From positions 1 through 22,597 of IMG/VR virus record IMGVR_UViG_2554235483_000003: DNA of 22,597 nt. The stretch is one strand, 5' to 3'. Below are positions 4,359 through 21,489 of the stretch, piece by piece. The notes beneath the pieces were generated by a model, which did no database searches, was not told the origin of the DNA, and saw only the letters and a list, made by a program, of their open reading frames with translations. Within the stretch, counting starts at the first letter, position 1; every line of letters begins with the position of its first letter. The translations under genes and the position numbers were made by a program. This stretch comes from a virus.

Positions 4359-7103
4359 TTACATCCGCGAGATTCGGTTCGACTTCGACTGTTCATTTTC
4401 CTCAACGACGAGTTCAGCATTCTCGCGTATGAGTTCCGCGAGCTCACCGTCGCCCTCGATCTCCAGTCGTGCCGTAATGGTGCCACCACTCACGCTCTGC
4501 ATGGATCCACGAGTCGTCTCAGTCACTGTTTGTCGACCGACTTCGTAGGCCGTATCGAGGTACCCACTCAGTTTGTCGAGCGGGACGACGGCCTCCTGTC
4601 CGGCCTCACCAATCATTGCGATCGTCGCACTATCGACGATGCCACCGTCGGCTAACTGTGGGAGATCAAGTCCCTGTCCACCGACCGTTGTTGATGGGAC
4701 ATTGATGCTGCCACCCCCGACAGTCCACCCACTCTCCCCTGGAACTGGATTGGGGATATCCACTGTCGGAACACTCAGTCGTTGGCCCCCAACAGAGATC
4801 TCGGGGATCTCGAGCGTATCGGGAACGAGCTGGTTGAAGAGATCGACAGCACTGTCGACAGTACTTCGGATCTCCCCAAGAACCCACTCTGGTAGCTCTC
4901 GGATCATGTCCTTTACCGCCTGAATGGCAGTGTCGATGGGGGAGACAATCGCCTCCTGAACAGCACCAAATGCACCCTCGATCGCATTGGAGCCAGTCTC
5001 AGCCACCCAGTTAGCGATGTTGGCAATCGTCCCACTAACACCTCCAGCGAGCTCCTCGAGGAACCACATCAAGTTCCCAATCGTCACGTCGAAAACTGCC
5101 TGGAAGGCGTCAGAAATCATCCTGACTGCTTTTTCTCGGATCCACGTTTCGATCTCTCCCAGAGTCGTTTTGAATCCAGTAATGAGATCACTGAAGAACC
5201 CGTTAAAGTCAGAGATCGTATCGCTGATCCATCCTCTAATGAATTCGAGGATCTCGTTGAAGGTATCGGGGACGATCGAACCCCCAATCAGGAACTCGTA
5301 GATATCTTCGAAAATCCCCTTGATGAAACCGAAGATCATCTCGAAGGCTGCCGTCAGTCCCTCCCAGAAGTCCTCAGTGATGAAGTTCAGAATATCACCG
5401 AATGTTGTCTGCCAGAAATTCCAGATGATTCCGAGCGCTTCGTCGAAGTCGCCTCGGATGAGCGCGAGGACGGTGCGAATTACCGTTGAGATCGCTCGCA
5501 TGGCAGTCCCGATGGTGAGCTCAAGGAAGGAGAATGTCGTTTCGACGATCGTCATTACCTCTTCACCGTGATCGTCCCAGAATGATTCGAGCCACCCGAG
5601 AACGGTTTCAACGTGATTGGCTACCACTTCGAGCGTCTCGATCACGTCTTCGACAATCGCTTCGAAGTGCGTCTCGAAGGTGTCTGCCAATCGCTTGAGG
5701 AGTGGCATCGCATACTCCTCGAAGACGAACATCAGCGTGTTGTAGATACTCTGGAGGATTGGTTCGAGAGTGTCCCAGAGTTCTCTCGCTTTATCCTGAA
5801 TCCCGCCGAGATTGTTGCTCCACGCGTAGTAGAGCACACCAACAGCAGCTGCTATCGCTGCAACTGGAGCGAGAATCGGAGAGAGAGCACCAACAATTGC
5901 GGGGCCGACGCTGACTGCGATTGCTCCCAATCCGGCGAGCGTCGTCCCGACGAGGGCGATGAGTGCTGGCATCCCATCGAGGGACTCATTAAAGTCGAGG
6001 AATGCATCGACCGCAGGACGAATGAACTCGATACTGTCCGTCAGGACAGGGAGGAGTTGCTCGCCAATGTCGATTGCGAGGTTATTGAGCTCGTTTTTGA
6101 GGAGCTCAACCTGTCCATGGAACGTATCAGTCTCAGTCGCAACTTCACCAGCGAGGGATCCACCCTCCACCATCGCCTGATTGGATGTCTCCATCGCTTC
6201 TCGCATCGTATCGGCCGATTCTGCTGTATCGCGGAAGGCGCGTGCTTGAGACGTAGTGAGCTCGCTATTTAGGGTATCGAGGGCGTCCTGATTGCCACTG
6301 ATGGAGTCCATTAACTCCATCATCGTCTCCTGGGGAGCCTCGTCGCGCATCGTCTCGAACTCCTCAGCAGCCACTCCCAACATATCGGCGAACATCTCGA
6401 CGTTATCGGGATTCATCATCGACTCAGACACCTGCTGCATCCGCTGTGCAGCCTGTCGACTCGAAGGGGAAACCTCATTGAAGGCAGCAGAAAGGCCGAG
6501 GATCTCGTCGGACTCCAGTCCGAGCGTACTCATCGCCTGCCCAGCACGCTGGGTGGAGTCAACGATCTCGTCGGATGTCGTCTGGTAATTGTTCGAAAGT
6601 TCGTTAATGGAGTCGCCAAGCGCTCCGATATTGTCGAGTGGTTCGTCGAGAGCAGACGACATCTTTCCGAGCGCAGTGCCGGCTTCATCAGCAGAGAGCG
6701 TCGTCGCCGATCCCATCTGGCCGGCGACTCGAGTGAACTCCTCGATCTCGTCTGAGCCTTCTGCTCCCATTCTGCCGGCCTGAGTGGCTAGTCCAGCGAG
6801 TTCTTCCTGCGCTAGCGGGATTTCACCCGAAAGATCCTGAATCGCCTCAGACAGCTCTGCAGCTGTCTGTGGATCTGTCACCTTTTCAACGTCAGCCATA
6901 GCCTGCTCGAAGTCAGCAGCAGCACTCGCACTCGCAGCGAGTCCGGCAGCTCCCGCTCCAGCGAGGACACCTCCGGCTCCTGCAACGGCCGTCTCCATGT
7001 CGACCGCCGAACTCTCCACGTCGTCGAAGACATCCGCAGCTCCCTCGTCAGAAGCCGTGATTTGGATCGCTAACTCTTGACTGCCGTCTGCTGTAAATGA
7101 CAT
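4359..7103 (-). CDS. Tail tape measure protein (914 aa)
   Basis: TP901-type core (DFEQAMADVEKV...LAGLATQAGRMG), Ala-rich helical composition, central hydrophobic stretch, periodic W/F repeats, C-terminal LADGGIV...IGEAGQEAVVPL motif. Confidence 0.95.
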   Translation of the reverse strand: MSFTADGSQELAIQITASDEGAADVFDDVESSAVDMETAVAGAGGVLAGAGAAGLAASASAAADFEQAMADVEKVTDPQTAAELSEAIQDLSGEIPLAQEELAGLATQAGRMGAEGSDEIEEFTRVAGQMGSATTLSADEAGTALGKMSSALDEPLDNIGALGDSINELSNNYQTTSDEIVDSTQRAGQAMSTLGLESDEILGLSAAFNEVSPSSRQAAQRMQQVSESMMNPDNVEMFADMLGVAAEEFETMRDEAPQETMMELMDSISGNQDALDTLNSELTTSQARAFRDTAESADTMREAMETSNQAMVEGGSLAGEVATETDTFHGQVELLKNELNNLAIDIGEQLLPVLTDSIEFIRPAVDAFLDFNESLDGMPALIALVGTTLAGLGAIAVSVGPAIVGALSPILAPVAAIAAAVGVLYYAWSNNLGGIQDKARELWDTLEPILQSIYNTLMFVFEEYAMPLLKRLADTFETHFEAIVEDVIETLEVVANHVETVLGWLESFWDDHGEEVMTIVETTFSFLELTIGTAMRAISTVIRTVLALIRGDFDEALGIIWNFWQTTFGDILNFITEDFWEGLTAAFEMIFGFIKGIFEDIYEFLIGGSIVPDTFNEILEFIRGWISDTISDFNGFFSDLITGFKTTLGEIETWIREKAVRMISDAFQAVFDVTIGNLMWFLEELAGGVSGTIANIANWVAETGSNAIEGAFGAVQEAIVSPIDTAIQAVKDMIRELPEWVLGEIRSTVDSAVDLFNQLVPDTLEIPEISVGGQRLSVPTVDIPNPVPGESGWTVGGGSINVPSTTVGGQGLDLPQLADGGIVDSATIAMIGEAGQEAVVPLDKLSGYLDTAYEVGRQTVTETTRGSMQSVSGGTITARLEIEGDGELAELIRENAELVVEENEQSKSNRISRM

Positions 7104-10766: not shown

Positions 10767-11597
10767 TTAACCCTCGATCTTGACGCCAGCGTCGGGACGG
10801 ACAGCCGTCCACCCCATCCGGGTGCGAACCTGGATGACGCGCTCGTTCGTCGTATCCTTCTCGTACTCGTTCGTCGTCATCTCCGTCCGAGTGCTCTCAA
10901 TACCGTAGCTCGAGCTGTCGAACATGACGGCCTCTCCAGCACCGACGTGGCCACCGTTGTCGACATAGACGGGGACACCTGCAACCTCACCGAAGGCGCC
11001 GTCGCGGACGACATCGTCGCCCATCTCGCTGGCGCGAGTGAACTCGTCTGACTTCATCAGGTCGCCCTTCGACTCTGCGGAGACGACGAGCAGATCGGGA
11101 TCGAACGCGCTCCCCTCGAGTGCAGTCATCGCATCGATGACATCGGCGTACTCGAGGTTGCCAGAAGCGTCGCCGATGACAGTGCCTTGGAGATTCTCGT
11201 AGTTGCCCTCAGCGTCGGTAGCACTGATCTCCTCGAACGCTGCTTCGTCGAGCGCGTCGGCGAGATCCTCCGCTCGCTCCTGAGTTTGGAGCGCGATAAC
11301 GTCGAGGAGAGAATCCTCGATCGCCTCGTAGGTGATAGCGATCTCGACACCGTACTTGTCGTGCGAGACGCTGACTTTGCGAGTCCCATTCTCCGATTCA
11401 GGGTACTCAGTACCCTCGTCGACGATGCCCGCGTCGCGAACCTTGTCCGAGACGGGAATCTCGACAGTGTTCGAGTTGATCGCGGTTGAGTCGATCTGGC
11501 TGAATGCCTGTCGCCAGACACGGTTCTCCTGGGCGTACTGATCGACTTCGGCACGAACTGCCTCCTGATCAATAACTTCGTTACTAGAAACTGCCAT
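10767..11597 (-). CDS. Major capsid protein, HK97 fold (276 aa, no delta domain)
   Basis: Motifs VDEGTEYPES, KYGVEIAITYEAIEDS, FGEVAGVPVYVD and VIQVRTRMGW..VRPDA. Confidence 0.92.
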   Translation of the reverse strand: MAVSSNEVIDQEAVRAEVDQYAQENRVWRQAFSQIDSTAINSNTVEIPVSDKVRDAGIVDEGTEYPESENGTRKVSVSHDKYGVEIAITYEAIEDSLLDVIALQTQERAEDLADALDEAAFEEISATDAEGNYENLQGTVIGDASGNLEYADVIDAMTALEGSAFDPDLLVVSAESKGDLMKSDEFTRASEMGDDVVRDGAFGEVAGVPVYVDNGGHVGAGEAVMFDSSSYGIESTRTEMTTNEYEKDTTNERVIQVRTRMGWTAVRPDAGVKIEG

Positions 11598-12928: not shown

Positions 12929-13255
12929 TCAGTCAGTGATAATTACGTCGTGGAACCCGTCATTAGGAAATGTCTCCTGAGATCCGTCGGGATAATCCAC
13001 GATGAAATCAGCTCGAAAACGCCCGGTGAGCTCGGATATCTCGTCTTCGCTCCAGGAGTACCTGACAATCCCTCCATTAGCATCAAAGCTAGTGGCAGCG
13101 TCATTTAGAACAGGTGATCCACCACGTGGTTCTTGGAGTCGGAATTGAACCTCGGCATCGTTGAGGTCGATCGACTCGCCGTTTTCGTCGAGTAGCACAG
13201 CCTCAAGGACAGGTGCAGTGTCTCCAGACTTGAGATAGAACGATTCACACACCAC
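12929..13255 (-). CDS. BppU N-terminal-domain-like virion protein (108 aa)
   Basis: Pattern LKSGDTAPVLEAVLLD.NG..IDLNDAEV.F...GIVRYSW...RADF.V.YPDG..ETFP resembles the stand-alone BppU_N/DUF2479 type domain. Confidence 0.6.
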   Translation of the reverse strand: MVCESFYLKSGDTAPVLEAVLLDENGESIDLNDAEVQFRLQEPRGGSPVLNDAATSFDANGGIVRYSWSEDEISELTGRFRADFIVDYPDGSQETFPNDGFHDVIITD

Positions 13256-13267
13256 ATACCACCGACG

Positions 13268-13657
13268 TTATTCAACAGCCATCCCAACGTTCGTGAGATC
13301 CAGAACGTCGACTGAGCCGAGATCGTACGTCTGCTCAAGTTCACTGGTGAAGATCAGATCCCCGCTCGAACTATCTCGAACGTAGATATAGTCAACAGCA
13401 ACGTCAGAATCCCCAACATCGAAACTAATTTCGCCAAGATTAAGCTCAGCATTCCCATTCTCGTTCTGCGAGATGGTATGATTACTCACCGACTGAGGTG
13501 CGTAGTTGCTACCCACGGGTTCCGAAGTGATGTCAGCATACGTACTATCCTCAGCAAGTGCATCCGTCGAATTATCGAAGAGCCCTATTTCCACAGTACG
13601 TCCGTCGAACGCGCCGTTGAGAACAAGCAGCTCTCCGTCATTGTGTAGATAAGCCAT
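13268..13657 (-). CDS. Small beta-rich virion protein of the fibre-associated type (129 aa)
   Basis: Pattern VEIGLFD...DALAEDST.ADITSEP.GSNYAPQSV...ISFD recurs in small proteins next to phage fibre genes; recognised from memory only. Confidence 0.5.
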   Translation of the reverse strand: MAYLHNDGELLVLNGAFDGRTVEIGLFDNSTDALAEDSTYADITSEPVGSNYAPQSVSNHTISQNENGNAELNLGEISFDVGDSDVAVDYIYVRDSSSGDLIFTSELEQTYDLGSVDVLDLTNVGMAVE

Positions 13658-13739
13658 AATTGTCTCTAAAAGTGCTTTACTGCGACTGTCACTGATGAGA
13701 ACTACTCAAGAAACGAGCTACCCGCGTATTATCTTACGC

Positions 13740-13770
13740 TCTATACTAATATAAGACTTTATGCTTCCGT
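13740..13770 (-). promoter_or_regulatory. Candidate archaeal promoter (purine-rich BRE-like run followed by TTATATTA)
   Basis: Minus strand reads GGAAGCATAAAGTC-TTATATTA (box at 13747-13754) in a 141-bp AT-rich gap, about 90 nt upstream of the 13657 start. Confidence 0.35.
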
Positions 13771-13798
13771 GAATGATATAATATTGGGAATAGAGCCC

Positions 13799-16700
13799 TC
13801 ATTCGTCTGATCTCTCAGAACTGTATATATCAGCGTCGTTCCCTCCACTAATACGTAGATCATTCTCACCACTGACGCTCATACCATTCGATCCAACGGA
13901 CAATTTCCTTACAACCTGAGAGTACTGGAATGGGGCATGGAGACTAACCGTGAGATCAATTAGAGTTGGAGTTAGCGTGATACTGGTGAATATGTTGCTC
14001 CTCTCTTGGAGTGTAGTAGTGGTATACGTAAGATCTCCACTCTTGGCGTTAGATATAGAGGAGATATCTGTTGGAATCGAAGTAGCAAACACTATCTTAG
14101 ATGAGGTGGCTCCGCTTGTCTCCGATTCAGGAATCGATATCTTTGAAGAAATCAGTAGCCTTGCCTCGTCACGTTCGAACTTCCCGGAAGTGATCTCGAG
14201 AATAGAGATATCGACGACGTCAGCATGGACATCATCAATAATCCCCTGTAGTGTATTAATTTCGCTTAGTGATAATTCTGATTCAACTAGATGAACGTTT
14301 GGAGTTGCTACTGAGAACCCACTTGGTGTAAGTTCCTGAGCAGTGAGGGAAATCGTCGAGGAATCTCTGATTGTAGAGTGTGATTCCACAGCAATTGGGT
14401 GCGCTGTAGTATCCAACAGAGCGCTCTCTACGAGTGTGTGAGTCGTTTCACTCGGATTAAGGATACTCGCTCCGACTCCGATATCGACATCTTCATTGAG
14501 GCTAGTAGCCATCTCATTGGAGTCCAGAATCTCCACTCTTCCATTGTACACGACTGTGCGGTTAGTGGTCAACGACGCTCCAGTCGTATCGACAGGATCT
14601 ACACCAACACCAACTCTATCCGTATCTGAGACACCCAGTCCAACCAACTCAGGCTCGCCAATCGTCACTGACGTAGGGGTTGACACGGGAGTAGAGTTTG
14701 TAGTAGCGATTATATCTGTGAATTGAGTAATGGCCAATTCAGTGAGAACCGGAGCAGTTTCAGTAGACGAGTGTCCTACTGTCTGATCGATATCCGCTGT
14801 TGCACTAATACCTCTAGTCTCGGTCGTAGACGAACTTGTGCTCTGTAGGTTCGGGATCCTCACTATTGCGTTGAGTCCCTCTGACTCGTCAACGATTATA
14901 CGTAGCGGAGTGTGGGGATCAACAGATGCACTGGTGACTTTCAACGAATTATCAGCAACCGTCCGGACGACGGTATTCTTTGCTTCCCAGGCATCCTGAC
15001 TCCCTGGAAGCTGTGGATGCGAGACGGTCGTGTACGACTCGTCGTCAAGCGTCCACGCTTCAGAGCCATCATCTGCGTTGTACGCTCGGATTCCGTCAGA
15101 CTCACACCCCACGTAGATCGTCCCAGTCTGATCTATCTCAATCGAGCCCGAACTTGAATTGATGCTTCGCTCCCAGACAATTTCTGCATAGTCGTTGTCG
15201 GGGTGAATCGATTCAGATGGATTCTCAGCTATGTACTTGAACAACCTCGTCGAGTTTGATCCATTCGTCTCAATGAAATAGAGCGCATCATCGTCGTCAG
15301 CAACGCCATCAATCACATCATTAGAGAAAAGAGAGATGCCGTGTGGATCTGCAGTGCCTTCTGGGACGAAATATAGGATATCTTCGCCAAATACGAAGGG
15401 CTCTGGACTACTCACATCGTACCTTGGAATAACACCGACGGGATCGAAGTTGCTCCCGAGACTCTCGTCCATGTACACCGTATTGTGATTGACGTGAGCT
15501 CCCTGATCCCCTTCTCCACCAGAGACTACCAAGTATCGCTGCGATTCTGGGTATTCATCAGATGTTTCATCGTCGTATCTGACGAGCTTTGGAGAGTCAC
15601 CTGCCTCATCGTCAGTTATCGAGTACTCAGGGATATCTGGCCATCCATTGGTGCCTGTGTCCTTGACGAATACACACCAGTCGTCTTCCCAGTCGGTAAC
15701 TCTGTCAGTTAGAATGTACAGGTATCCCCAGTCGCTGATGTCGATATCAAGGAATTCGATGTCAGAATCACCGAACCCCGCAACATCCTCCTCTGAGACA
15801 GTCCATCGAACATTACCATCTGGACTGTAGGAGATAATCCGATCAGGTTGATTGTTGTAGAAGACGTACGCATTTCGGTCGCTATCGACAACAATGTCAA
15901 ACGGTTCCTCTGGAAGACTCTTCCTCCACGAAACGTTCCCCTCGTTGTCAAAGAAGATGAGCTCACCCGTTGAGCTTGAGTAGGCGTAGTTGTACGGCTC
16001 AATCTCACTTTCCTTAGTGGTGAACACACTCGGATTGGTGATTCGAGTGCCAACCCGAGTTACGGCTGGAGCTGCTTCCTCGTTCCCAATTGGTGATGTT
16101 GTGTATACATCCCCAATTGACAGCGTACTATCAGCACTAACTATTGACGAAGCCCCCTCTGCAATGGCTGTAGACGTCGAAGCTATCGAATCCCCCTTGA
16201 TGGCAGCCATACCACTCGTAGAACCCACCGAAGCCACACTATGAACGGAGGAGAATTCAGCAGTGAGAGGCGCAGCAACTCCCTCTATCGGTACTTTCGA
16301 TGATGCTCTCGAATCAAGTGATAATGTCGATGCACCAATGGTATGTATCCCTGCTGAAACAGTAGAATGGCCGATCGGTAACAACCCATCACCGTTGACA
16401 CTAACCGTGGCAGGAGTATCTGCTTTCGATGACATCGTCTCTGGTGTCGTTGTAGTAATAGTACTCGTTGTCGTGATCGACACAGGAGATACTGATGAAG
16501 TCTCTGAGGGGCTGTGCGGATATCCCTGTAAATCTATCTGTGATGTGATGGGCGAACCCACAGCGGTCGCTGATGGAGAGGTGACAACTGTTTTCCCAGT
16601 AGTGACGCTTGCACTCGCCGTCTCAATCTCTACTGTCTGGGTAGAGACGTGGGGTGGGAGTATTTTTGAAGACAGAGTTGTCTTCAACGCAGTTGCATTC

Positions 16701-17320
16701 TCTATTATTGGATCGGGACTGTCGTCAGTATCTGTGATACGAACACCATCCCAGTGAAATGCAGCTGCTTCCTTATCACCAGCTGAACCACTACTAAACC
16801 CGATACCAAGGGCATCAGCTGAGTTACTAGTGATGGTGAGCTGATCTTGTTGCGTTCCATCATAGTAGAACGTCGCGGTTGTCTCTCCAGTGGCAGTAGA
16901 TCCCCAGTCAACCTCCACCTCAATCCACTCATTTTCTGGTAATACGTAATCCCCAGTGACTTCGGTTCCAGAGTACCCATCATTGAGGGTTACAGTAGAG
17001 GTTGAGTCAGCACCGACGCTCCAGGAGTTATCTTCTAATGCACCCTCGTCATTTGTATAGGCATCACAACCGAATAAGAACGAGAATTGCCCATCTAGAA
17101 TCTCTGTTCGTATCCAGAGTCGAAATACGTGTCCTTGCTCTGGATACGTATTTAGTCCATCTTCTGGATCCGAATAGATCGTTGGGGTGGAATCAACTGG
17201 ATCTATAAAGAGATGCGATCCTCCGGACGCAGAATCCTCTGATGAGATAGTAGCAATATCGACGTCACCATAATATTCCGTCAAATCCTCATCTTCGAAG
17301 TCGTCAATTATCTCAGCCAT
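13799..17320 (-). CDS. Large multidomain fibre/adhesin-like protein (1173 aa): jelly-roll domain, Ser/Thr stalk, beta-propeller, second Ser/Thr stalk
   Basis: N-terminal IIDDFED...WIEVEVDW...FHWDGVRI domain. Two long S/T/V/I-rich low-complexity tracts. Central repeats such as FFDNEGNVSWRKSL, SYSPDGNVRWTVS and RAYNADDGSEAWTL typical of PQQ-like propellers. Confidence 0.75.
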   Translation of the reverse strand: MAEIIDDFEDEDLTEYYGDVDIATISSEDSASGGSHLFIDPVDSTPTIYSDPEDGLNTYPEQGHVFRLWIRTEILDGQFSFLFGCDAYTNDEGALEDNSWSVGADSTSTVTLNDGYSGTEVTGDYVLPENEWIEVEVDWGSTATGETTATFYYDGTQQDQLTITSNSADALGIGFSSGSAGDKEAAAFHWDGVRITDTDDSPDPIIENATALKTTLSSKILPPHVSTQTVEIETASASVTTGKTVVTSPSATAVGSPITSQIDLQGYPHSPSETSSVSPVSITTTSTITTTTPETMSSKADTPATVSVNGDGLLPIGHSTVSAGIHTIGASTLSLDSRASSKVPIEGVAAPLTAEFSSVHSVASVGSTSGMAAIKGDSIASTSTAIAEGASSIVSADSTLSIGDVYTTSPIGNEEAAPAVTRVGTRITNPSVFTTKESEIEPYNYAYSSSTGELIFFDNEGNVSWRKSLPEEPFDIVVDSDRNAYVFYNNQPDRIISYSPDGNVRWTVSEEDVAGFGDSDIEFLDIDISDWGYLYILTDRVTDWEDDWCVFVKDTGTNGWPDIPEYSITDDEAGDSPKLVRYDDETSDEYPESQRYLVVSGGEGDQGAHVNHNTVYMDESLGSNFDPVGVIPRYDVSSPEPFVFGEDILYFVPEGTADPHGISLFSNDVIDGVADDDDALYFIETNGSNSTRLFKYIAENPSESIHPDNDYAEIVWERSINSSSGSIEIDQTGTIYVGCESDGIRAYNADDGSEAWTLDDESYTTVSHPQLPGSQDAWEAKNTVVRTVADNSLKVTSASVDPHTPLRIIVDESEGLNAIVRIPNLQSTSSSTTETRGISATADIDQTVGHSSTETAPVLTELAITQFTDIIATTNSTPVSTPTSVTIGEPELVGLGVSDTDRVGVGVDPVDTTGASLTTNRTVVYNGRVEILDSNEMATSLNEDVDIGVGASILNPSETTHTLVESALLDTTAHPIAVESHSTIRDSSTISLTAQELTPSGFSVATPNVHLVESELSLSEINTLQGIIDDVHADVVDISILEITSGKFERDEARLLISSKISIPESETSGATSSKIVFATSIPTDISSISNAKSGDLTYTTTTLQERSNIFTSITLTPTLIDLTVSLHAPFQYSQVVRKLSVGSNGMSVSGENDLRISGGNDADIYSSERSDE

Positions 17321-17333
17321 GTACTATCGAGAG

Positions 17334-18032
17334 CTACAATCTGAACAGTTCGTCATCGCTCGTCATCTCGGCGATAAGTTCTTCTTGACGTACCCACACG
17401 TTGTCAGGGATCTCTTCTTCAGTATGATCAATTTCGAGTGTATCTACGATCCCATTCCTCACATCGTTAACCAGTGAATCATCTATCTCATCAATAGTGC
17501 CAATCCGTTCTTCAACGGTGTCTACGAGTTTCCCGTCGAACTTGGAGTCAGGCAATCGGATGTGCTCGTACATGGGCAGTTCGATTCCTCCGTTGATGAA
17601 CATACCAGCGAGTCCTCCTCCGTATGCAAATCCTGCAACCTTACGCCCGTCTATGACGATATCATTGCCCTGCTGACTATTCTGATCGAGATAGGCATCG
17701 TATCCGTGATCACGAAGCACATCTCGCAGCGTAGCAAAGACATCCTTCAGATCACTGAACGAGTAGCCATCACCTAGTATGAAGCCTACTGTCGGAGATG
17801 CATCTGCAAGCACAGATGCCTTCGTTGCCTTGAGATGTTTTCCTCTAACAACAGGGTATCCGCTTTCTCGAGCACTCTCGATATCAAGAAACTTAGACTC
17901 CGTCGAGTCAGGGAGATAGTAGTGTGGCTCCGTCGTCTGACAAATAAACAGAAACCCGTCGTACGTCTCATCCAGTGCACACCACATCGGAGCGCAATCA
18001 ATACCGGGGCCTTCGTATCTAAATACTCTCAT
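17334..18032 (-). CDS. Lipoate-protein ligase (BPL/LplA/LipB superfamily)-like protein, 232 aa
   Basis: Start moved to ATG at 18032 (MRVFRYEG). Contains GNDIVIDGRKVAGFA (17631-17666 core), the upstream DIESARESGYPVVR segment, and LPDSKFDGKL..TVEERIGTI. Confidence 0.7.
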   Translation of the reverse strand: MRVFRYEGPGIDCAPMWCALDETYDGFLFICQTTEPHYYLPDSTESKFLDIESARESGYPVVRGKHLKATKASVLADASPTVGFILGDGYSFSDLKDVFATLRDVLRDHGYDAYLDQNSQQGNDIVIDGRKVAGFAYGGGLAGMFINGGIELPMYEHIRLPDSKFDGKLVDTVEERIGTIDEIDDSLVNDVRNGIVDTLEIDHTEEEIPDNVWVRQEELIAEMTSDDELFRL

Positions 18033-18411
18033 AATCAAACGGTTGGATGTACCTCTGGTGTCCTGCTGGTAGAGAGGTAGTGCGATTCTTGATATAGTCG
18101 TAGAGTGTGGTGTCATCCACAGAAACCTCCTTGATGTCAATCCCGTACCCCTCCTGGATCTGCGACTGTATGTCGTCTACTACATCTGGCAACAGGGTTC
18201 CTGGCTCCATCCGAAATCCCTCGACAACAGCTTCACCCTCTGTCAGCTTTTCAGCGTTGTAGTCTTCAAGGTCGATCTCGCTATCGAGTGCCCAGAGTTC
18301 GTCACAACTATGTGGATCTCTGGCTAGCTTAACACCGTATGTTTTGGGTGGAGCAAACTGCTCATGTGGTTCGCGAGTATACAATACATACGTCAGATCC
18401 TTAGTAGTCAT
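18019..18411 (-). CDS. Hypothetical protein (130 aa)
   Basis: Acidic ORF starting 6 nt after the portal stop and overlapping the next start by 14 nt. No motif recognised. Confidence 0.7.
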   Translation of the reverse strand: MTTKDLTYVLYTREPHEQFAPPKTYGVKLARDPHSCDELWALDSEIDLEDYNAEKLTEGEAVVEGFRMEPGTLLPDVVDDIQSQIQEGYGIDIKEVSVDDTTLYDYIKNRTTSLPAGHQRYIQPFDYESI

Positions 18412-18417
18412 AACGGA

Positions 18418-19926
18418 TTAGTCCTCGAGAGATACCTTCGATCTATTATCTCCAGTCTCGACTGAGTCTGGAGTGGCCGGTTTGTCGTACAGATCCTTTA
18501 GCTCAGACTCGACAGCCTGTTCAGTCTCGCTCTTAACATTGTCAGTGCCATTCTGATTGGACTCGTCTCGATCCGGGAGTCCAAGCATATCTCTGAGTTC
18601 GTCAACACTCACAACCTCCTGTGGCTCTCCAGCGGTCGCAGTGTTGATTCCCTGTGCAAATTCCTGGAAATCGCCGATGGAGAAGTCGTCCCGCTCAAGG
18701 GGGCTCTCGTCGTGACTCTCTTCAATCTTCAGACGGATGCTATTGACGTCAGATTCAGCGTAACCGAGTTCCTCGGCCTTCCGACGGAGAACAGGTTCGA
18801 AGGTGGTTGAAAGTCGCCGTCGTTCCATCTGTACAGTCCGCTCGTACTGTGGTGACTGCTCGGAGGTAACGTCGCGATTGACATTATCCGTGAATCCAAG
18901 TTTGTACTTGGGGACAGGCATCGCAGAGAGAATCTCCTCGACGTACCAGTCGAGAATCTCCTGGATCTCGGGCACATCGCTCGAGATCGTCTCTACCTTG
19001 ACATCGCCTGGAACGAAGTCCTTCTGTCCGACTTCCCATTCTCCGTCTTTGTGGGAGTCTCGATAGTTCTTAATCTCCTCCTCGGGCCAGATTCCGGCTC
19101 GAGGATTCGTGATGTCTCCGTTGGGCTCACCGAGCTTGAAGATCCAATGGGGATAGCCCTTGCTCCTCACTGCTTCCGAGAAATCACCTAACATCTGGTA
19201 GAGTTCGTCGATCTCTTTAGAGACGGGTGCGATCGACGAGTTGCCAAAAATCTCGCTTGTGTCTGGATCCTGAACGAGTTTGACGACATCGTTTTGAGAC
19301 AAAAAGACGGTATCCTTGTCGTCGAATGGGCCAGTGAGAGCACCATTAGCCCACTGTCCATATGCAGCTGCCTCGCCTCTATGGCTAAGATTGATGCCGT
19401 CGAGTTCAGTATCGTCAGGTCGGATCAGCACGGCCTGATTCTCGTAGGTATAGGCTTGCACAGTGGAGGGGTTGAGAAGCCGGAAACCCCAGATTTCGTC
19501 CTCACTCTCGGCCTTGGGGACGACTTCGACGAGTGCTGTCCCACGAACCTCCTGCTGCACAATCGAACCATCGAGGATTTCGGAGAAGTCTCGATGACTC
19601 TCCCCAGCAATGATGCCAGATTGAGAGAGCCAACTCTCGAGTTCCTTTGCGAGCTCATCGTTGTCAGCATCGACGCGGTAACCCGGCTCCGTGACATCCT
19701 CAGCGTACTGGCGGATCGGAACGCGAACAAGTGGACACGTCTGATATTGCTCCCAGTATCTCTCGAGATCACCCTTGTTGGGTCGGATCGATCCAACATC
19801 CGCCCCAAGACTGTACAGCGCGTACTCTCCACGTCGATTCTCTGTCTGGACGTCTGGATCCCCGTGACTGAGTAGGGACTCAGCGACACCCCTTGATGCG
19901 CTCGAAATCCGATCTCGAAGGTTCAT
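18418..19926 (-). CDS. Portal protein (502 aa)
   Basis: Follows the large terminase. Portal-like pattern VRGTALVEVV...FRLLNPSTV...IFGNSSIAPV...ILSAMPVPKYKLG...VSVDELRDMLGL. Confidence 0.9.
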   Translation of the reverse strand: MNLRDRISSASRGVAESLLSHGDPDVQTENRRGEYALYSLGADVGSIRPNKGDLERYWEQYQTCPLVRVPIRQYAEDVTEPGYRVDADNDELAKELESWLSQSGIIAGESHRDFSEILDGSIVQQEVRGTALVEVVPKAESEDEIWGFRLLNPSTVQAYTYENQAVLIRPDDTELDGINLSHRGEAAAYGQWANGALTGPFDDKDTVFLSQNDVVKLVQDPDTSEIFGNSSIAPVSKEIDELYQMLGDFSEAVRSKGYPHWIFKLGEPNGDITNPRAGIWPEEEIKNYRDSHKDGEWEVGQKDFVPGDVKVETISSDVPEIQEILDWYVEEILSAMPVPKYKLGFTDNVNRDVTSEQSPQYERTVQMERRRLSTTFEPVLRRKAEELGYAESDVNSIRLKIEESHDESPLERDDFSIGDFQEFAQGINTATAGEPQEVVSVDELRDMLGLPDRDESNQNGTDNVKSETEQAVESELKDLYDKPATPDSVETGDNRSKVSLED

Positions 19927-19947: not shown

Positions 19948-21489
19948 TCAGTAGCTGTACAATCCATATCCTGCTTCCTCGTGGGCTCTTTCCGTTCGTA
20001 GCGCCCAACACGCAAGCGCCATTGCGTCCACAAGATCGGGGGATCGTCCCATCGACGATGTCTTCTTTAATTCCTTCTTCGACGTCGCGTTCCACGCCTG
20101 TGACGATCGTGTCGACTTCTCCGTGAGCTCGATATGTCTTGAGGCAGATCGCAACTCAGACGCAAGGTCGGACTGTGGCTCGATCGCACCACTCTCAAGC
20201 CATTTGTCGATTGCACAAAGCGCCTCAGTACGCTTGTTGTGGTACTTGTGAGGCTCTATAGCATTCTCCGAACTCTTGAACCGCGTAACGTTGTATGAGC
20301 GATTGAGTTCATCTGCAATACCTGATCCTTCACCGACAGCGTCGACGATAACTGGCGTCCGATTATCTTGGATGTTCTGCTCGATAAGGCGCTTATTGAC
20401 AGAGTGATCCCCTGGACTCTCGACATTCTCGAGGACGTCGACTCGAGAGGGGGTGATGCCGACTACAACTGTCCGGTCGCCCCCTCCCCGCGCTATGTCG
20501 ACGCCGATTGCATCGTAGTCGGGCGTGTAGTGGGGATTGATCCCGTCCCAGCGATCCTCTGCACGGGCTACACCCTCAGGATAGAACGGGCGGACAGACT
20601 GTGCACCATCTGGCGGGAGAACGCCTAGCCGTCGTCTATAAAAGCGCTCGTCGTATCCCGACTCCTCGACGTAAGGGATCCCAGTATCAGGATCCGTTTT
20701 AATCATCTCGAGCGACTCCTCGACGCCAGGGAATCCCTTGTTCGGATGCCAGGCGTCGAAGTCCGCCACCACTTGGTCGAGGTCGACTAATCCAGGGATT
20801 GGTTTCCCCTCAATCATTCCTGCCTCGAGTTGAACATTGTGACTCTCGAATGACGAGAAGTGGATCACTTCCCATCTATCGCTCTCCATTATCTCGTAGA
20901 AGCTGTTGGATTCGTCGTATGGTGGATTCCCAATGGCGATGCACCGATCGCGACTATCCGTCACACTCGAGAGGGCACTATCGAAATGTTGGGCAGAGAG
21001 ATCCGGCTTGTCGCACTCATCTAAAATGCAAAGCACCCTTTCAGCGTGTCTCCCCTCTAGATTCTCAGGGTACCGACCTGAGATAGCTTTCCAATATCGC
21101 TCGGCGTTATCCTCGAACTCGAGACGGGGAGGAGAGTGCTTCATCTTTCCTGGAAGAGGAAAACCCCTGTTTCGAGCACGCTCGAGAAGCGATCGCATCG
21201 ATTTAAAAACCGTCTCCTCAAGGATCTGGTAAGATCCAGACGTCATAATCCCGATCGCGTTCGGGTTAGTGTAGATCCAGGCTAGGTTAAGGATGGCAAC
21301 TGTGTACGATTTACCGGCTCCATTGGCCCCTATGACAGCGACATACCTATCCTGGGTGACGGCCCGGAGGAGCTTCTTCTGTACCTCCGCTAGATCGACC
21401 CCAAGGATGTCGTCTGCGAACCGAACATAGCGATCTTCGCCAGAAATATACGGGTCGAGAGGATGGCTACTCGCCTCTTCAGCAGACAT
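19948..21489 (-). CDS. terL: Terminase large subunit (513 aa)
   Basis: Walker A GANGAGKS, Walker B CILDE, coupling motif IGNP, RNase H-like nuclease motifs IGVDIARGGGDRTV and SPDLVDAMAL. Confidence 0.95.
   Translation of the reverse strand: MSAEEASSHPLDPYISGEDRYVRFADDILGVDLAEVQKKLLRAVTQDRYVAVIGANGAGKSYTVAILNLAWIYTNPNAIGIMTSGSYQILEETVFKSMRSLLERARNRGFPLPGKMKHSPPRLEFEDNAERYWKAISGRYPENLEGRHAERVLCILDECDKPDLSAQHFDSALSSVTDSRDRCIAIGNPPYDESNSFYEIMESDRWEVIHFSSFESHNVQLEAGMIEGKPIPGLVDLDQVVADFDAWHPNKGFPGVEESLEMIKTDPDTGIPYVEESGYDERFYRRRLGVLPPDGAQSVRPFYPEGVARAEDRWDGINPHYTPDYDAIGVDIARGGGDRTVVVGITPSRVDVLENVESPGDHSVNKRLIEQNIQDNRTPVIVDAVGEGSGIADELNRSYNVTRFKSSENAIEPHKYHNKRTEALCAIDKWLESGAIEPQSDLASELRSASRHIELTEKSTRSSQAWNATSKKELKKTSSMGRSPDLVDAMALACWALRTERAHEEAGYGLYSY

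Follow-up and report, generated by a model that had tools for sequence, protein, structure and literature searches.

Why does a lipoate-ligase-like gene lie among the virion structural genes of an archaeal provirus? The locus that raises this question is contained in the IMG/VR record IMGVR_UViG_2554235483_000003 (positions 1 to 22,597; the whole 22,597-nucleotide stretch analyzed is hereafter called the window), which corresponds to G000:C29:9652-32248 within a 4.4-Mb haloarchaeal genome of 49 contigs and is an integrated provirus of a salt-loving archaeon. On its minus strand, a gene for a 130-residue protein (positions 18019..18411) runs directly into one for a 232-residue LplA-like protein (17334..18032, stop included), and a first-pass annotation proposed that the larger product is a repurposed ligase or transferase that modifies a virion protein or a host target. 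Enzymes of the LplA, LipB and biotin protein ligase (BPL) types are known almost exclusively for attaching cofactors to a small number of carrier domains in metabolism. Within this known superfamily, the novelty lies in a deeply divergent subfamily that is restricted to viruses, whose pocket has been rebuilt and which is obligately linked to a new partner protein.

The 232-residue protein is predicted to adopt the LplA catalytic-domain fold

The open reading frame (ORF) for the 232-residue protein extends on the minus strand from an ATG at 18032 to a stop codon at 17334-17336, and its coordinates and gene structure, together with the motifs and altered loop described below, are as first annotated, as judged by ORFs and alignments. 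The source gene call is shorter (217 residues, starting at Met16), and the upstream ATG at 18032 adds 15 residues (17988-18032, minus strand). Because these residues include the first β-strand, residues 2-9, which has a predicted local distance difference test score (pLDDT) of 97 in the AlphaFold2 (AF2) model, and because homologues align from residue 1, the 232-residue start is better supported and the 217-residue call is probably truncated at its N-terminus.

The AF2 model of the 232-residue protein has a pLDDT of 92.1 and a predicted template modeling score of 0.89, and its best Foldseek match is the LplA enzyme from Thermoplasma acidophilum (3R07_A, E 4e-14, template modeling score (TM) 0.76; 2ART, E up to 1e-13, TM 0.77). 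These hits are followed by bacterial and mammalian LplA/LipT proteins and then by LipB, with BPL enzymes appearing only distantly; matches on the LipB side are weaker (2QHS, E 2.6e-9; 1W66, E 1.6e-7). In the ESM Atlas, the model matches an archaeal LplA cluster with a TM of 0.83 and a root-mean-square deviation of 2.4 Å over 224 residues. Taken singly, the sequence scores 21 bits against PF21948 (E 3.5e-4) and is sub-threshold, as the curated cut-off is 27 bits; it reaches 22.2 bits against TIGR00545 (E 6e-5), short of the equivalog cut-off of 280 bits, and matches the PDB entry 2ARS by phmmer with an E of 1.1e-3. A family profile, built from 14 sequences (the window protein and 13 relatives), matches 2ARS (T. 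acidophilum LplA) with an E of 1.9e-14, several bacterial LplAs at ~1e-12 and E. coli LplA at 1.3e-8, and PF21948 is matched by 13 of the 14 members (best E 5.3e-12). The same profile finds no LipB in the PDB and meets biotin protein ligases there only at E 0.18-0.32; with Foldseek TM values to BPL of 0.34-0.42, both sequence and model suggest that the protein does not belong to the BirA/BPL group. Because the profile, Foldseek and ESM Atlas matches all lead to LplA, we regard the LplA catalytic-domain fold of the 232-residue protein, within the PF21948 superfamily, as established on sequence and model, and the outcome in which a structure search would return no LplA fold did not arise. As the first-pass annotation had also noted, there is no C-terminal LplB-like domain, as the chain ends where Thermoplasma LplA ends. 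Searches of PHROGs and PADLOC, and a tblastn search of phage records, returned no match to the protein.

The predicted active site retains catalytic residues and lacks the lipoate pocket

The family was aligned with the host's own canonical LplA (P0016, with the motifs TRRQTGGGGIYHD, RKISG and QHGS), a canonical haloarchaeal LplA (from L022), the E. faecalis and E. coli LplAs, and 2ARS. Three minus-strand segments of the window protein stand out. Residues 61-74 (VVRGKHLKATKASV; 17811..17852) form a remodeled loop in place of the lipoate-binding loop RRxxGGGxVxHD. Residues 123-134 (NDIVIDGRKVAG; 17631..17666) correspond to the catalytic strand pair and contain the motifs N123-D124-I and G129-R-K131-V-A-G, where N123-D124 are equivalent to N121-D122 of the E. 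coli enzyme and K131 to its K133 and to K145 of the T. acidophilum enzyme, on which it is placed in the 2ARS alignment. Residues 161-176 (PDSKFDGKLVDTVEER; 17505..17552) are aligned to the PDEKFRDK...RERV segment of Thermoplasma LplA and contain the invariant K168 and R176; the C-terminal SD..F helix is likewise retained in the viral family. At a pairwise identity of ~30%, the invariant or near-invariant columns are R63, N123, D124, G129, K131, K168 and R176, along with the structural G110, D116 and P161, and by alignment the functional columns among them are the loop arginine, N121-D122, K133 and the conserved K...R segment of LplA. R63 (R69/R70 in E. coli LplA), K168 and R176 are found in all 14 members, and N123-D124, as well as G129 and K131, in 13 of 14.

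The residues that would hold lipoate have been replaced. The glycine-rich lipoate-binding loop is absent from all members, its replacement is four residues longer, and of the canonical loop only R63 is left; the loop reads RGKHLKATKASVLAD (RGKHLKATKAS) in the window as compared to a family consensus of R..H..AG.YS. The equivalents of His79 and His149 in E. coli LplA are lost in every member, being A78 and A142 in the window protein and hydrophobic or small residues elsewhere. In the E. coli enzyme R70, V77, H79 and H149 contact the lipoyl moiety and K133 contacts oxygen atoms of adenosine monophosphate (PMC9307952), and the LplA lysine is essential for the adenylation and transfer half-reactions alike (PMC7186572; its role is also described in PMC9307952). 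The alignments thus bear out the proposal of a conserved lysine in a changed pocket, as they indicate that the catalytic lysine is retained and the acyl pocket replaced family-wide, save for the lysine of a single member (P0006, considered below).

The alignment also bears on the type of chemistry. LipB and LipM operate through a Cys-Lys dyad and an acyl-thioester (PMC9307952). Because the 14-member alignment contains no conserved cysteine column, and three members contain no cysteine at all, the LipB/LipM thioester route is unlikely for the viral family. The window protein is acidic (isoelectric point (pI) 4.3) and contains eight lysines, of which six (K65, K68, K71, K131, K164 and K168) lie in the three active-site segments and three of the eight in the remodeled loop, a distribution that would suit an anionic ligand.

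The family is rare and associated with viruses

An exhaustive search of 1.84 billion protein representatives identified 13 relatives (215-255 residues, 28-36% identity), giving a family of 14 representatives with the window protein. Nine of the relatives could be traced to contigs, so that 10 loci, including the window, are available for comparison, and wherever flanking sequence exists the neighbors are tailed-virus genes; for example, L009 contains a portal, two Phage_capsid_4 proteins and a cement protein, and L007 and L016 each contain terminase and portal genes. A hidden Markov model search of 401 haloarchaeal genomes revealed a single true member, in the genome studied here (257 bits), the other hits, none above 75 bits, being canonical cellular LplAs. 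A maximum-likelihood tree, with limited sampling and long branches, places the 14 viral sequences apart from 10 cellular LplA/LipB sequences with support of 97/99. The clustering with host ligases in non-viral contexts that would have counted against the first-pass proposal is therefore not observed: the family is distinct from them, it is rare and virus-associated, and among the contexts observed only viral ones occur.

Other searches add little to this distribution. Pattern scans of IMG/VR, GTDB genomes and JGI metagenomes confirmed no further member, a word-index search returned the window protein alone, and longer, fused forms of the family were looked for and not found, which is weak evidence. 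Only four viral proteins with an LplA fold are present in BFVD, none of them close: they are 13-15% identical to the window protein and match it in Foldseek at E 4e-13 to 3e-8. Full-text literature searches located no description of the subfamily and no paper tying a lipoate ligase to haloarchaeal viruses or tail fibers, and lipoate ligases go unmentioned in a 2025 preprint on the viruses of haloarchaea and nanohaloarchaea.

A small partner protein is encoded directly upstream

The translational coupling of the LplA-like gene to the 130-residue protein proved to be a feature of the family. A homologous gene for a protein of 117-130 residues lies directly upstream of the LplA-like gene in eight of the 10 loci, namely the window and L004, L006, L007, L009, L011, L012 and L016, whose homologues comprise 117-123 residues. 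The two genes overlap by 14 nucleotides in the window (the 130-residue ORF spans 18019-18411), by 1 in L004 and L016, by 4 in L006 and L012 and by 10 in L009; they abut in L007 and are separated by a 2-nucleotide gap in L011. The exceptions are L020, where the contig is too short to judge, and L018, where the gene directly upstream (L018:1-636, at least 212 residues) is not the partner and instead encodes a weak Sulfotransfer_3 match (E 9e-4). The small proteins are mutually homologous (BLAST E 1e-6 to 1e-18) and share the core motif LTEGEAxxEGxKMxPGT...VD.I....YGID.K.

The 130-residue protein had been put forward as either partner or acceptor of the enzyme, and the two halves of this proposal fare differently: the recurrent gene pairing supports a partner, whereas the sequence argues against an acceptor. 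The invariant residues are G26, W40, A61, G65, P70, G71, T111 and P124, none of them lysine; the lysine of the EGxKMxPGT motif is replaced by arginine in the window, tryptophan in L009 and glutamine in L016, and the best lysine columns are occupied in five of eight members. Without an invariant lysine, an acceptor role is unlikely, and we rejected it, given also the missing lipoyl-type profile match and the helical C-terminal half of the model. Nor did the surroundings offer another carrier: the first-pass annotation saw no lipoyl or biotinyl domain nearby, and none matching Biotin_lipoyl or GcvH is present on the whole provirus contig, the host's copies being on other contigs. The 130-residue protein has no Pfam match at E ≤ 0.1, including Biotin_lipoyl, GcvH and PF10437, and no PHROG or PADLOC match. 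Its model has a pLDDT of 74 with a low-confidence N-terminal half; with it, Foldseek returned nothing from the PDB below E 0.69, a wide VIA-align search gave Z ≤ 5.1 for generic ferredoxin/ACT-like matches on the low-confidence residues 1-59, and the ESM Atlas yielded nothing usable.

The viral pair resembles and departs from cellular lipoylation systems

Among known systems, the closest parallel is the bipartite archaeal LplA-LplB enzyme of T. acidophilum (Ta0514/Ta0513m; 2ARS, 2ART, 3R07), whose LplA is the viral protein's best match in both sequence and structure. Both consist of the catalytic fold in ~230-260 residues with no fused C-terminal domain, and they have in common the lysine (K145 and K131, respectively), an aspartate in the preceding strand, the PD.KF..K....R.RV segment and a C-terminal SD..(W/F) helix. 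The gene arrangement is similar too, as the small coupled upstream gene recalls the haloarchaeal lplB-lplA pairs (L022:1486-2613, L024:1046-2085, L029:962-1974 and L030:920-1932), in which genes for proteins of ~90 and ~250 residues overlap by 4 nucleotides and adjoin a lipoyl synthase gene. In contrast to archaeal LplA, the viral family lacks the RRxxGGGxVxHD loop (the arginine alone being left, with four residues added) and both pocket histidines. The viral partner, at 117-130 residues, is also unlike the ~90-residue LplB, as it has no GDFF motif and no profile or fold similarity to it, and the viral family, unlike archaeal LplA-LplB, is confined to viral late-gene contexts with no LipA/LipS neighbor and no lipoyl acceptor nearby.

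Homology of the 130-residue protein to LplB found no support, as hhalign gave a probability of 0.5% against one haloarchaeal LplB and 0.2% against four. As regards PF10437, the accessory LplB/C-terminal domain, the 232-residue protein has no such fused domain, and the partner occupies the LplB position; fold searches with the partner, whose modeled N-terminal half is of low confidence, list no LplA C-terminal domain. Adenylate formation depends on LplB in archaea, and transferases arose in lineages from which it was lost (PMC10332631). Because the arrangement is that of the cellular lplB-lplA genes, and because archaeal LplB is needed for adenylation, an LplB-like accessory role is the most economical hypothesis for the partner, by analogy of position only. 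As separate observations, GDFF is invariant when the four haloarchaeal LplBs are aligned, PF10437 matches two of these four, and the window's host genome contains no PF10437 match, yet has a canonical LplA.

Two other comparisons are of interest. Like LipB, LipM and LipL, the viral protein is a single catalytic domain with a conserved lysine and an arginine at the start of the substrate loop; unlike them, its family has no conserved cysteine, no Cys-Lys dyad and none of the glycines of the RGG loop. Virus-encoded LplA folds are also represented in BFVD by a lipoate-protein ligase of Bodo saltans virus and two 'Siphoviridae sp.' proteins. The giant-virus protein is a full-length 396-residue ligase annotated as canonical, and none of the BFVD proteins was retrieved as a sequence relative of the viral family.

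The gene pair lies in a late operon, within a variable cassette

Every large gene of the window is on the minus strand, and together they form a tailed-virus late operon. The large terminase (19948-21489) is followed by the portal protein (18418..19926; phrog_9232, E 5.7e-154; PF04860, weak), and the gene for the 130-residue protein begins 6 nucleotides past the portal stop; with the portal directly upstream, the pair belongs to the late operon. After the LplA-like gene, a 13-nucleotide gap precedes a gene for an 1173-residue protein (13799..17320, start at 17320), so that the pair is closely flanked by the portal and by this gene. Next are a 129-residue protein (13268-13657; phrog_17792, E 2.7e-49; weak Gp80 fiber-I and calycin-like matches) and a 108-residue BppU_N-like protein (12929..13255; PF10651, E 1.2e-6), which closes the cassette formed by these genes and the pair. 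Further along are genes for a DUF2213-type protein of 402 residues, the HK97-type major capsid protein (10767-11597), a gp10-like protein, the tape measure (4359-7103) and a LamG-containing protein of 729 residues. The position of the 129-residue and BppU_N-like genes between the 1173-residue and DUF2213-type genes places fiber/baseplate-type domains within the head-gene region.

The provirus is flanked on its left by a host gene (TrkA-N/DHH, 63% G+C) and contains on its right side a low-G+C Eco57I-type restriction-modification gene and a tyrosine integrase (L033:11900-12895). The restriction-modification gene encodes a 1379-residue fused Eco57I/MmeI-type enzyme (L033:1269-5408; G000:C29:33517-37656) in a 42-47% G+C block inside the provirus, between the late operon and the integrase. 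In the window, the G+C content is ~47-50% over 13-18.4 kb, which covers the 1173-residue, LplA-like and 130-residue genes, as compared to 53-60% in the flanking structural genes; this lower-G+C block (13000-18400) suggests that the cassette was acquired separately.

Four families of neighbors recur when ORFs are clustered across the loci. A Vgb_lyase/SGL-type β-propeller family is present in six loci (L004:8824-9528, L007:1554-2246, L012:2350-3069, L009:10988-12322 and L016:10942-13035 have 5-6 blades with the motif D.DGCIW...IY..TQSGS.VSSF..PS). It is encoded directly downstream of the LplA-like gene in L004, L007 and L012, and in L009 and L016 is fused to long tandem repeats rich in Ser, Thr, Pro and Glu. 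The LplA-like gene is often accompanied by genes for other modifying enzymes: family 4 glycosyltransferases (GT4) in five of 10 loci (as the next gene downstream in L006, L009 and L016), a ~300-residue metalloenzyme/PF01663-type family of the phosphatase superfamily in four, and the weak sulfotransferase of L018. BppU_N-like proteins are found in four loci, recurring with the pair in L007, L009 and L016, and the one in the window matches those of L007 and L009 by BLAST (E 1e-17 to 1e-18).

The 1173-residue protein, which the first-pass annotation linked to the enzyme as a giant fiber-like gene, carries Ser/Thr-rich tracts, as do large proteins of L009 and L016, and a weak PQQ/BamB-type propeller signal (Pfam PQQ_2, E 6e-6, sub-threshold), and is a candidate fiber or adhesin. 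A specific link did not hold up, as no homologue of this protein is detectable beside other members by BLAST or hhalign; we also considered and rejected it as a relative of the propeller family that follows the pair elsewhere (no BLAST match; hhalign probability 0.3%). What the neighborhood survey did recover is a more general theme of propellers, large Ser/Thr-rich proteins and a BppU_N-like protein. The cassette lies past the portal, past the capsid genes or ahead of the terminase, depending on the genome. From this variable position and the deviant G+C content in the window, the cassette behaves as a mobile accessory unit for the surface of the particle or of the host rather than as part of the morphogenetic core.

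Function of the pair

We favor, tentatively and at slightly less than even confidence, the reading that the 232- and 130-residue proteins form a two-subunit ligase, active but with a shifted substrate, that is produced late in infection. Its ancestor would be an archaeal LplA-type ligase whose acyl pocket was rebuilt to accept a carboxylate that is neither lipoate nor octanoate. By analogy with LplA, the carboxylate would be activated as an acyl-adenylate in a site composed of R63, N123-D124, K131 and the K168/R176 segment. K131 would then promote its transfer to an amine of a target that is produced or encountered late in infection, most likely a protein of the virion surface or a fiber protein, and the 130-residue protein would act as an indispensable accessory subunit, with the same positional role as LplB, and not as the acceptor. 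From this analogy we infer that the pair is catalytically active, that it works through an adenylate, that its two proteins form a complex, and what its substrate and acceptor may be; acylation of the virion by the pair is a hypothesis. The fuller picture of a two-component modification system of archaeal tailed viruses, in which an LplA-derived ligase and a novel small subunit place a non-lipoate carboxylate on lysines of virion-surface or fiber proteins, or of a host target, within a mobile host-interaction cassette that also holds glycan-tailoring enzymes, is possible and at this level of detail doubtful.

Several observations weigh against an active ligase. The glycine-rich loop that is missing from the viral family is needed for full LipB activity and has been called crucial for LplA (PMC9307952), and the pocket geometry is as predicted from alignments only. 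The partner shows no similarity to LplB (hhalign 0.2-0.5%), no GDFF motif and no structural match, and the window provirus has no glycosyltransferase or phosphatase-superfamily gene beside the pair. Finally, the member P0006 (L011:363-1091) lacks N123, D124 and K131 (TCCSLL...GRMFAC), while retaining R63, K168, R176 and the upstream partner gene. This protein comes from a non-halophilic sample, has a pI of 8.4 and, from its sequence, likely represents a pseudo-enzyme lineage. Its joint loss of the three residues argues that they are functionally linked; it also means that at least this lineage uses the protein without such chemistry, and that the protein can persist without N, D and K.

P0006 is likewise the reason why the catalytically dead structural domain, which the first-pass annotation gave as its own alternative, must still be weighed. 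The LplA fold may serve as a non-catalytic ligand-binding or scaffolding module that, with its partner, assembles or anchors the variable propeller and fiber proteins, or may itself be a minor virion component. The gene lies within structural and late modules beside portal, capsid, cement, terminase and BppU_N-like genes, the lipoate loop and both pocket histidines are gone, and the three residues kept by P0006 alongside its partner (R63, K168 and R176, 14 of 14) are conserved more strictly than K131 (13 of 14). However, retention of N-D...K in 13 of 14 members at ~30% identity is unexpected for a purely structural role, a variable cassette position is unlike that of a core structural gene, the window pair lies in a lower-G+C block, and no PHROG match connects the protein to known virion proteins. 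On balance, we consider such an adaptor unlikely, and one that deserves to be kept in view.

An active ligase could instead act on a non-protein acceptor, namely the amine of a glycan or lipid-linked sugar, as a step in a viral glycan-tailoring cassette that decorates Ser/Thr-rich virion proteins or remodels the host envelope. This would account for the GT4 genes in half of the loci, three of them adjoining the LplA-like gene, for the PF01663-type family in four loci, for the weak sulfotransferase directly upstream in L018, and for the Ser/Thr-rich tracts of the window 1173-residue protein and the large proteins of L009 and L016. The window provirus lacks both the glycosyltransferase and the phosphatase genes, however, so that the pair functions without them, and finding genes together in mosaic viral cassettes is weak evidence that they share a pathway. 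We know of no LplA-superfamily enzyme that acylates a sugar, and judge a glycan acceptor improbable. Least credible of all, to the point of being very hard to sustain, is an ordinary auxiliary metabolic gene, that is, a bipartite lipoate/octanoate ligase taken from the host, which would lipoylate the E2 proteins of the host's 2-oxoacid dehydrogenases and its GcvH proteins in the course of infection. In its favor, the nearest relatives with solved structures are LplAs of archaea and bacteria, lipoyl-domain and GcvH proteins are encoded by the host, and the gene order resembles lplB-lplA. However, no member keeps the lipoyl-contacting residues (the GGG loop, the V77/H79 region and H149), a canonical LplA with every motif is already present in the host and the gene lies in a late structural operon, which together make this role unlikely; in addition, the partner shows no similarity to LplB, and the family forms a long branch of its own and occurs only in viral contexts.

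Implications

The finding is well founded structurally and comparatively. Engineered LplA variants are valued protein-labeling tools because the pocket can be retuned. If the pair is an active ligase, it would be a natural, virus-specific lineage in which the catalytic core was kept, the pocket rebuilt and a new partner acquired, extending the chemistry of the superfamily and offering a halophilic ligase scaffold of new specificity. Were the protein instead non-catalytic, it would still clearly exemplify how an enzyme fold can be co-opted for virion morphogenesis. An active pair could also bring to light a covalent modification that is new for archaeal virus particles or for host proteins.

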